From IMG/VR virus record IMGVR_UViG_2558860290_000012: 4,581 nucleotides of DNA; one strand, 5' to 3'. Position numbers and translations under genes: made by a program. The notes beneath the pieces are model-generated. The model searched no databases, was not told the origin of the DNA, and was given only the letters and a program-made list of their open reading frames with translations. This document shows, piece by piece, positions 3,353 through 4,568 of the stretch (position 1 is its first letter; each line of letters opens with the position of its first letter). Source of the stretch: a virus. Lineage: Duplodnaviria > Heunggongvirae > Uroviricota > Caudoviricetes.

Positions 3353-3377
3353 AAAAAACCCGCCGGGTGGCGGGTTT
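3353..3377 (-). terminator. Rho-independent (intrinsic) terminator at the end of the accessory cassette
   Basis: On the minus strand, directly after the TAA stop of the 138-aa gene (complement of 3376..3378): AAACCCGCC-ACCC-GGCGGGTTTTTT. A 6-bp all-GC stem (3359..3364 pairs with 3369..3374), 4-nt loop (3365..3368), then a run of 6 U (plus-strand A run 3353..3358). The plus-strand orientation has only a 3-T tract, so function is mainly on the minus-strand transcript. Confidence 0.78.
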
Positions 3378-3792
3378 ATGAATCGTAGGTTTTCAATTTT
3401 TCGAGTTCATCAGGAGGAAGTTCTATGAAGGTTTCCTCTGCTAATTTTATCAGCCGGGGAAGCATCGAATCAGCTTGCTGATGAGCGTTTGGGCTGATGA
3501 TTGCCAATATCTGATAGTGTTCATCGATATAAAGATGCTGAGCATATACCAAAAAATTATCACATGTCCGTTCACTCAGAGATGCTTCTGGAGGCCAGGG
3601 TTTATCGCCAGGTAGCTTTAAGTGAATTTTCCTGATATTGGCAGCCATCGCATCATAGTTACGTTCAAAACCGCCTAACGAACCAAAACACCAGAACTGG
3701 GAACCCTTTGAAATATAATCGGCAAGCATTTGAGCATACTTATGTGCTGCAGCTAAATGACGCAATTCTCCCGTGATACTGACTTTTGCCAT
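3376..3792 (-). CDS. Hypothetical protein (138 aa), second gene of the two-gene accessory cassette; function unknown
   Basis: ORF in the supplied track. Start ATG (complement of 3790..3792) lies 1 nt after the TGA stop of the upstream gene (minus strand reads TGA-C-ATG), indicating coupled translation. AT-rich codon choice (TTA, AGT, ATA, TAT frequent) and about 40-45% GC in the 60-nt blocks I hand-counted, against about 48-62% in the baseplate genes. No resemblance to structural proteins that I can recognise. Contains R11-H12-x4-H17 (RHLAAAH). Confidence 0.7.
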   Translation of the reverse strand: MAKVSITGELRHLAAAHKYAQMLADYISKGSQFWCFGSLGGFERNYDAMAANIRKIHLKLPGDKPWPPEASLSERTCDNFLVYAQHLYIDEHYQILAIISPNAHQQADSMLPRLIKLAEETFIELPPDELEKLKTYDS

Positions 3793-3793
3793 G

Positions 3794-4366
3794 TCACATC
3801 CATTTAGGGGCGTTGGCTCCCAGCATCTTATGCGATGTTGAGATCAGTTCAATAGCCTCTTCACGGGTAACATTATCTGACAAGAGTTCAGCCTGGAAAG
3901 GCTGCGATTGCCTAACTTCAGCGGCCAACTGAGTTGCAGTGTTCTCGACGGCGGTCAACGCACGAACATATTTGCGTTTTAATGGGCGCAACATTTGCAG
4001 ATGGCCTTGCCACATAGGGGACCTTTCCGCTTCAGAGAACATATCCACTAAATGTCCTTTAGCATTTCGGCATGCCTTGGCAAGACCTTCGAGATGGGAT
4101 AAAAACCCTTCCGGAAGCTCATCAACAATGATTCTCCCATTTCGAAAAGCTTCGAGATGAGACATGCCTTCCTTCGCGGTATTTTCGATTTCTTGAGCGC
4201 GTGCAGCAATCGCGGTACAACGACGAAATGCCTCTTCAGCATCTAATCGTTGTGGCAGTTCACAAGCATTAGAGATCAGGGGTTTGAAAGCACCGTTAAC
4301 AGCTTCCTGAACCTGATTCATTTGTTGTGTAATTGTTGCCAGCGCAAATGCGTAGCTAATCGCCAT
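3794..4366 (-). CDS. Hypothetical helix-rich protein (190 aa from ATG; the ORF track's 192 aa begins at an in-frame TTG at 4372) with an R-N-x3-H motif; first gene of the accessory cassette
   Basis: ORF in the supplied track (3794..4372). I prefer the ATG at the complement of 4364..4366 because GAGGG (complement of about 4374..4378) sits about 7 nt upstream of it, whereas the TTG at 4372 is too close to that Shine-Dalgarno sequence. Sequence is rich in Ala/Glu/Leu/Gln/Arg, consistent with an all-alpha fold. Motif C-R102-N-A-K-G-H107-L, encoded at nt 4052..4069 (complement), was verified codon by codon. Confidence 0.7.
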   Translation of the reverse strand: MAISYAFALATITQQMNQVQEAVNGAFKPLISNACELPQRLDAEEAFRRCTAIAARAQEIENTAKEGMSHLEAFRNGRIIVDELPEGFLSHLEGLAKACRNAKGHLVDMFSEAERSPMWQGHLQMLRPLKRKYVRALTAVENTATQLAAEVRQSQPFQAELLSDNVTREEAIELISTSHKMLGANAPKWM

Positions 4367-4372
4367 ACCCAA

Positions 4373-4568
4373 TCCCTCTGTCGTTTTAAACGACTATACA
4401 CCACTTATTCAAAGTTAGCTGAGCGCTAAAAGTTCGCAAAGTTTAGTGATCATGCAACCACCTAGCAAGCGATAAAAAATCATTATTTAGTGAATGTGAA
4501 CAAACTCAACACTATGCAGAAATGTAACTTTTGGTTAACCATCAACCTTTTTACACGGGAAAGATCCG
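4373..4568 (-). promoter_or_regulatory. AT-rich non-coding region upstream of the cassette; putative promoter/operator region
   Basis: No convincing ORF on either strand. Candidate -10 TATAGT on the minus strand (complement of 4393..4398) about 26 nt upstream of the ATG, with poor -35 candidates. Three direct copies of AAAGTT at 4411..4416, 4429..4434 and 4438..4443. Inverted repeat TTAGC-N5-GCTAA at 4415..4429. Perfect palindrome GGTTAACC at 4533..4540. GTGAA-T-GTGAA at 4490..4500. Promoter hexamers were called by eye only. Confidence 0.35.

Follow-up and report, generated by a model that had tools for sequence, protein, structure and literature searches.

The 4,581-nucleotide (nt) stretch of Caudoviricetes DNA filed as IMG/VR record IMGVR_UViG_2558860290_000012, called here at its full length the window, carries within positions 3353-4568 a cassette of two small open reading frames (ORFs), ORF A and ORF B, which probably constitutes a bicistronic toxin-antitoxin (TA) module of type II, harbored as optional cargo (a moron) at a variable site in the tail/baseplate region of SfI/SEN34-like temperate phages of Escherichia coli and Shigella. 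ORF B is a member of the YafO toxin family, ORF A would be its antitoxin and is its constant upstream neighbor, and the pair comes and goes between conserved phage genes. A previous reading of this DNA, made from the letters alone (the sequence-only reading), had put forward a self-contained moron with a defence or toxin-immunity pair at this place, and the homology of ORF B, the constancy of its neighbor and the variable presence of the cassette all support that proposal.

ORF B Belongs to the YafO Family of Toxins

The minus strand is the coding strand of every gene in the window, which thus forms a strand-uniform prophage gene block. On this strand ORF B (3376..3792; 138 amino acids, aa) encodes a putative endoribonuclease toxin. 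The protein matched the Pfam family PF13957 with E = 4e-17 and 62.6 bits, for a gathering score of 25, along profile positions 12-98 of 101, and for WP_023565512.1, a protein of identical sequence, the name given by the Prokaryotic Genome Annotation Pipeline (PGAP) is "type II toxin-antitoxin system YafO family toxin." Its identity with YafO of E. coli K-12 is 25%, the H..L, PxPP, RT.D..LVY and P..H motifs included. Taken on its sequence, ORF B is a distant member of the YafO family and no YafO orthologue. In an alignment of 12 sequences from across the family, including K-12 YafO, residues G37, H57, L81, P101 and H104 were invariant and R75 was nearly so, and we regard H57, R75 and H104 as the candidate active site. 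The clade of ORF B is also longer at the C-terminus, by about 15 residues with no counterpart in K-12 YafO and its closer relatives.

According to one survey, the PF13957 proteins are BECR-fold toxins of the RelE/ParE superfamily, encoded in the gene order antitoxin-then-toxin (PMC11980606). The AlphaFold model of ORF B, built with 18 homologues, was confident (predicted local distance difference test, pLDDT, of 93.7) and has the RelE-like alpha/beta fold of this superfamily. No relative was detectable when the solved structures were searched by sequence and no significant structural match was returned by Foldseek, which sets ORF B apart from the BECR-fold toxins HigB, HigB2, YafQ and RelE. 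YafO of E. coli is a translation-dependent mRNA endonuclease, and its activity and autoregulation have been described (PMC2814082; PMC7180214). The sequence-only reading had suggested a toxin-immunity pair that it did not recognize as a described system. The first part of this suggestion gains from a YafO-family type II toxin with a constant upstream neighbor, whereas the second no longer applies to the toxin, whose family is described and named by PGAP.

ORF A Represents a Small Family of Helical Proteins

ORF A (3794..4366, minus strand) encodes 190 aa from its ATG and ends one base ahead of ORF B, in a TGA-C-ATG stop/start junction (3796..3790, minus strand) that is consistent with translational coupling; the two co-directional ORFs and their junction are as the sequence-only reading had described them. 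The ATG at 4366 was preferred as the start site since it is preceded at a distance of 7 nt by a Shine-Dalgarno sequence (GAGGGA, 4378-4373), all homologues start with MAIS or MALS, and PGAP calls the same start. A 192-aa version beginning with the TTG at 4372 was considered unlikely. To judge from the conservation of their homologues, both ORF A and ORF B are real genes.

The ORF A protein, the putative antitoxin, belongs to an uncharacterised all-helical family, phrog_35514 (unknown function; E = 2e-92), and had nothing above threshold in Pfam, NCBIfam or PADLOC. A relationship with the YafN/Phd-type antitoxins was rejected, as the best BLASTP match with K-12 YafN reached E = 0.44 over 23 residues and there was no match to Pfam PhdYeFM; likewise, none of the HigA, DinJ and RelB antitoxin families resembles ORF A. 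The AlphaFold2 model (pLDDT 79) consists of helices at residues 3-31, 43-75, 88-115 and 123-154, followed by a low-confidence linker (157-163) and a short helix (168-181). Foldseek searches of the PDB with this model gave generic helical bundles only (best E = 0.15), and no meaningful match emerged when PDB sequences were searched with a profile. No DNA-binding domain of the helix-turn-helix, ribbon-helix-helix, AbrB or Phd type was detected with Pfam, NCBIfam or Foldseek against the PDB.

A word-indexed search of 5.8 billion proteins placed 35 clusters in the ORF A family, an exhaustive HMMER run with a profile over 1.84 billion representatives brought up 14 members, and a broadened profile gathered 53 proteins, of which every one named by its source is "hypothetical"; a scan of GTDB genomes yielded 3 loci only. 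By these searches the family is genuinely small, and its organism-named members are enterobacterial. W119, S178, H179 and W189 are the sole residues invariant across the extended family, and its subfamilies resemble one another detectably only in residues 104-190, a region that closes with the C-terminal motif SH-x(3)-G-x(3)-P-x-W.

ORF A and ORF B Travel Together

In 11 of the 11 distinct contexts examined, the ORF A homologue lay directly upstream of a PF13957 gene and on the same strand. The adjacency held down to matches with E of about 1e-4 and 17-22% identity, and the two genes were abutting, 1-3 bases apart or, in distant pairs, overlapping by up to 16 nt; the one-base gap seen in the window recurred in loci L003 and L005-L008. 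Adjacent, co-oriented and tightly spaced genes that travel together, as these do, have the layout of a type II TA module. At shared loci, the conservation of the toxin was 64-72%, versus 52-61% for ORF A.

The surroundings of the pair differed widely and took in four phage types. Besides the tail/baseplate block of the E. coli prophage, we found it between the tape-measure and tail genes of Flyfo siphovirus Tbat2_3, in prophage-like tail-gene regions of Pantoea, Leclercia and Klebsiella genomes, among siphovirus-like tail genes on metagenomic contigs, beside a transposase on a soil-metagenome contig and on a short metagenomic contig. A Hafnia P2-like prophage carries it between gpA and the portal gene, and on a Pectobacterium chromosome it forms a two-gene island with ABC-transporter genes on one side and gcvP on the other. 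In the K1-specific, P22-like phage CUS-3 it is located next to mnt/ant (ECRS218_0007 and ECRS218_0008; locus L015, 2360-3363): here the ORF A-family protein aligned by hhalign with E = 7.8e-5 over the C-terminal 86 columns, the toxin matched PF13957 with E = 3.2e-11, and the two genes, which overlap by 16 nt, are both annotated as "hypothetical" and are not recorded as a pair. We take the module to be mobile as a whole, shared by temperate phages and chromosomal islands.

The Cassette Occupies a Cargo Hotspot in the Baseplate Region

Among the 5426 complete E. coli genomes, 37 had the cassette, whereas the window was matched, through the flanking baseplate region, in 1312, the majority of these matches lying outside the cassette. 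When the junction was compared across genomes, an empty site and alternative cargos were both seen between conserved phage flanks, and the variable presence that the sequence-only reading would expect of a moron was borne out.

Between the STY1065/STY2022-family gene and the spike gene lies a cargo hotspot, for which at least six occupancy states were distinguished, from the intervals 3378-4534 in the window, 3000-3103 in L002, 4036-4452 in L004, 2558-3711 in L021, 2554-2793 in L022 and 1226-2378 in L023. Apart from the state represented by the window, DX6 has an empty site, in which the upstream gene is followed by about 20 nt, the same terminator and the spike gene; phage SEN34 has a single 138-aa membrane-type protein, its 113-aa protein being the conserved flanking gene, so that its cargo amounts to one gene; and RM12581 has a DUF4282 protein. 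An unrelated pair of 243 and 140 aa is found in 13E0725, and another unrelated pair, of 256 and 131 aa, in E2348/69; in each, the second protein has a very weak match to the PADLOC model HEPN_IX (E = 1.6e-4 and 8.9e-3, respectively), and both pairs may also be RNase-type two-gene systems.

Between loaded and empty sites, similarity is lost in the last 3-4 codons of the upstream gene and just past the terminator. The right-hand cargo boundary in the window is the 3′ end of this upstream gene (last 15 codons; 4581..4535, minus strand), whose product ends in ...PKIIGSFPCKKVDG before the stop. The ending varies with the cargo, reading ...CKKVDG in the window and ...CKKVAG in DX6 (L002); the corresponding product of the Shigella phage (L027) ends in ...PKIIGSFPCKKVDG. 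The exchange of cargos seems to take place in the stretch bounded by the terminator hairpin on one side and the upstream gene's 3′ end on the other.

Leader and Composition of the Cassette and the Backbone Terminator

The intrinsic terminator at 3377..3356 (minus strand) has a 9-bp stem that overlaps the ORF B stop codon, with a U-run behind it, and a folding energy of -15.6 kcal/mol (z = -4.2 against shuffles). The same hairpin was found in every other site state examined, the empty site of DX6 included, and it is therefore a feature of the phage backbone. The sequence-only reading had counted a strong intrinsic terminator among the cassette's own parts; the hairpin is real, but it belongs to the backbone and is kept in genomes that are free of the cassette.

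Upstream of ORF A, an AT-rich leader and candidate promoter region of 168 nt (4367..4534, minus strand; 37.7% GC) contains a candidate sigma-70 promoter, detected by a promoter scan, at 4509-4482 (TTGAGT-16-AATAAT) and a second candidate at 4468-4440 (TTGCTA-17-TAAACT), which we aligned by eye with a conserved TTGAAG-17-TACACT of the Flyfo, Leclercia and Klebsiella loci. Two palindromes follow, each compared in 4 sequences. TTAGC-N5-GCTAA (4429-4415) appears as CTAGC-N5-GCTAG in the Flyfo phage, that is, with one compensatory change, and GTCGTT-N3-AACGAC (4394-4380), which abuts the Shine-Dalgarno sequence, reads GUCGUU...AGCGGC in Leclercia and Klebsiella, G-U pairs having arisen there through two changes from U-A to U-G. 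Either palindrome may be an operator or form a small RNA hairpin. The full leader was no more stable than its shuffles (z = +0.63), and a scan of the cassette with Rfam for RNA elements gave a sub-threshold chance match on the terminator only. As to the AT-rich upstream region with repeat motifs of the sequence-only reading, the AT-richness was confirmed, whereas the direct repeats are two motifs of 8-9 nt, in two copies each, that by themselves are compatible with chance.

At a distant locus (P0036 pair; L009, about 1500-1572), a GC-rich hairpin with a run of seven T (CCACCG...CGGTGGTTTTTTT) sits between a conserved TAATACACT promoter-like element and the Shine-Dalgarno sequence of the ORF A homologue, and could be attenuator-like.

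The GC content of the cassette is 44.1%, compared to 50.1% in the rest of the window, and GC at third codon positions (GC3) is 0.37-0.42, compared to 0.46-0.60 for the neighboring genes. The composition deviates, though modestly; the deviant AT-rich codon use claimed before was real and only moderate in extent. Of the signals that commonly mark a moron, the cassette has this lower GC content, a candidate promoter recognized by consensus only and a terminator that is real and common to empty and otherwise loaded sites.

Phage Backbone and Genomic Setting

E. coli chromosomes match the window with 98.6% identity. In strain PSS-04 the cassette lies in the tail module, downstream of the terminase, DUF1073, head and DUF3383/DUF3277 tail genes and of genes for a tail assembly chaperone, a 661-aa lytic transglycosylase, a baseplate protein and a baseplate plug. 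The annotated baseplate protein and plug genes are followed by one for a hypothetical protein of about 355 aa and then by the STY1065/STY2022-family gene that adjoins the cassette, whose product of 113-117 aa has a signal-peptide-like N-terminus. Behind the cassette come the spike gene (2581..3333 in the window, minus strand; the left flank, annotated by Pfam and PGAP), a gp25-like wedge gene (phrog_120), a baseplate J gene (PF04865) and DUF2612; the spike protein has the N-terminal spike domain PF18352 (E = 4e-36) and the GpV apex motif PF18946. With baseplate genes on both sides, the cassette is located inside the tail/baseplate module and not directly upstream of a baseplate operon, as had been supposed.

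The same cassette occupies the same place in NZ_CP012733.1 (L027), a circular record of 41,686 bp from strain 0228 of Shigella flexneri 1a, where gtrA and a family-2 glycosyltransferase are accompanied by an integrase, lambda-like early genes and a myovirus-type tail module. We infer from this content that the record is an apparently complete serotype-converting temperate phage of the SfI type. It was the sole "plasmid" match of the cassette, so that plasmid carriage was discarded, and the record appears to be misfiled as a plasmid.

Some peculiarities of the PSS-04 prophage were also observed. The gene annotated ahead of the cassette in this strain encodes a 154-aa hypothetical protein (L001, 19591-20055) and ends before the window, while in the window (4535-4581), in the Shigella phage (L027, 10830-11171) and in DX6 the 3′ end of the gene for the 113-117-aa protein is found in its place; annotation or sequence differs from PSS-04 at this point, possibly by a frame shift or a variant. 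Past DUF2612 the prophage looks degraded (L001, 12758-15352; window 1-352), its tail-fibre and fibre-assembly genes being truncated pseudogenes; a recombinase pseudogene is also present, and a second lambdoid prophage abuts the first. The cassette of PSS-04 is intact within what may be a defective prophage.

Discussion

We consider it likely that the ORF A-ORF B cassette acts as a type II TA module in the lysogen, in the following way. A promoter of its own, situated in the 168-nt leader, would drive the pair, and the terminator would keep it apart from late gene expression. ORF A would be made first, translationally coupled to ORF B, and would serve as a cognate protein antitoxin unrelated to YafN, which is of the Phd/YefM type. 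By analogy with E. coli YafO, ORF B would arrest growth through translation-dependent cleavage of mRNA. Binding and blocking of the toxin would fall to the conserved C-terminal half of ORF A, with its flexible helix and its terminal motif, SH-x(3)-G-x(3)-P-x-W, and the more variable N-terminal half of the helical bundle would be devoted to regulation or sensing. The benefit to the lysogen would most likely be an abortive-infection-type protection against other phages or, alternatively, a post-segregational stabilization of the prophage; the recurrence of the pair at phage cargo sites leans towards the defence role.

Several observations weigh against this interpretation. ORF B scored 31.4 bits for a cut-off of 153 with the NCBIfam equivalog NF007377, and a score so far under the cut-off makes it a remote relation of YafO that may have another target; it is also acidic (isoelectric point 5.8), unlike many RNA-binding toxins. 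ORF A does not resemble a textbook type II antitoxin, since it is bigger than its toxin and has neither a recognizable DNA-binding domain nor a structural relative. The promoter is recognized only by its resemblance to the consensus, and the region contains as many such sites as its shuffles do. Furthermore, a search with both proteins in PADLOC-DB v2 gave 0 families at E ≤ 1, and as PADLOC has no model for either protein, nothing ties the pair to a validated defence system; a known defence system was on these grounds set aside as the identity of the cassette.

The strongest competitor, which we hold to be possible and clearly less probable, is the same module selected for addiction, that is, post-segregational killing that stabilizes the prophage or island, with no anti-phage function. 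Addiction is among the roles classically ascribed to the type II TA modules that mobile elements carry; it would also suit the Pectobacterium chromosomal island, which has no phage genes nearby, and the intact cassette in the degraded-looking prophage of PSS-04. However, the pair recurs at cargo sites of temperate phages, such as the gpA-portal interval of a P2-like prophage, and P2-like hotspots reportedly hold antiviral systems. Moreover, stabilization and defence are not mutually exclusive.

The role of ORF A could also be a different one: instead of sequestering the toxin it could counteract ORF B indirectly, by an enzymatic activity or target protection as in type IV- or type VII-like systems, or act as a co-factor or chaperone that ORF B requires. 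We judge this unlikely. The unusual size of the protein (190 aa for a 138-aa toxin), its fully helical build with no DNA-binding domain, the invariant Ser-His pair S178-H179 and the want of a structural relative that would indicate a binding mode are in its favor; nevertheless, searches of Pfam, NCBIfam and the PDB gave no enzyme-family signal, the conserved residues fall in a flexible C-terminal tail, like those of toxin-wrapping antitoxins, and the coupling and the antitoxin-then-toxin order fit a stoichiometric partner.

Distinctly less credible is a service to the lytic cycle of the phage itself, in which read-through of the late operon would express the RNase at a late stage of infection, for instance for host shut-off, with ORF A as a timing device. 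The cassette does lie within the late tail/baseplate block and would be co-transcribed if late transcription passes terminators, and genes for N- and Q-type antiterminators are found in related lambdoid-type genomes. But most related prophages lack the cassette, are empty at the site or hold unrelated cargo, so that it is dispensable for phage growth, and the same pair also exists outside phages. Finally, tail-completion or baseplate structural proteins, for which only the position between baseplate genes speaks, have practically no chance of being correct, given the YafO-family membership of ORF B, the lack of the pair in most phages with the same baseplate genes and its occurrence elsewhere, at sites that have nothing in common, in genomes of the siphovirus, podovirus and P2 types as well as on bacterial chromosomes; that neither protein looks structural had been noted before and was confirmed.

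As a TA module, the cassette can be set beside K-12 yafN-yafO of the dinB operon. The two share the toxin family with its motifs, the antitoxin-then-toxin order with a gap of 1-2 bases and, by analogy, the expected activity, translation-dependent mRNA cleavage (PMC2814082; PMC7180214). They differ in the toxin, which is a distant paralogue with the low identity and C-terminal extra given above, in the partner, a 190-aa helical protein here and the 97-aa YafN there, with no similarity between them, and in the setting, which is phage cargo with its own leader in one case and an SOS operon in the other. As a cargo unit, the cassette resembles prophage morons and the P2/P4 hotspots in being a lower-GC unit of gene(s), here between a candidate promoter and a backbone terminator, variably present between conserved late genes, and a P2-like prophage even holds a homologous pair in its gpA-portal interval. 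Its gene content is unrelated to P2 old, tin and fun, and no PADLOC model covers it.

A closer parallel is offered by phages HK639, YMC11/02/R656 of Pseudomonas and PhiR40_1, in which a PF13957 toxin also lies behind an unannotated protein of 179-190 aa (L024, 836-1854; L025, 872-1863; and L026, 222-1212, respectively), in HK639 likewise as a tail-module insert with an annotated terminator behind it. The partners in these phages, however, form a separate family with no Pfam or NCBIfam match, and their toxins cluster with K-12 YafO and are devoid of the C-terminal extension. Homology of ORF A with these partners was tried and dismissed as not significant (hhalign E = 0.022, probability 2%). Within this second family, a C-terminal GL(R/K)SLA..GTE motif was seen in two of the three proteins, and the PhiR40_1 pair was deposited as "YafM antitoxin" and "YafO toxin."

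In surveys of the prophages of P. aeruginosa, YafO appears with no partner antitoxin, and one of them remarks on prophages with "toxins alone" (PMC10449497; PMC12066637). It would seem from this that the partners of phage YafO toxins are commonly overlooked. The phage YafO "orphans" may really be complete systems, with partners in at least two unrelated-looking families that have never been recognized. Along with this, and likewise less probable than not, ORF A could stand for a class, so far not described, of helical "sensor" antitoxins, large at about 190-200 aa and dedicated to phage-borne YafO-type RNases, in which the C-terminal half holds the toxin and the N-terminal bundle recognizes a protein of the infecting phage and releases the toxin, leading to abortive infection.

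The toxin family is known and small; the partner ORF A, in the libraries and literature searched, is not named and has no domain or structural relative, and our literature search found no description of this pair or of its partner family. No concept is overturned, as partner swapping by antitoxins and TA modules as prophage cargo are already well known. The interest of the finding is moderate and lies in the correction of annotations, in a tractable small candidate for prophage defence and in a cargo site that is newly noted. If the interpretation as a TA module is true, the cassette would be a simple two-gene candidate for prophage-encoded abortive infection. Recognizing the upstream proteins of about 190 aa as cognate partners would correct their annotations and add an antitoxin family to the TA catalogue, and the hotspot in SfI/SEN34-like phages could be mined for other small systems.

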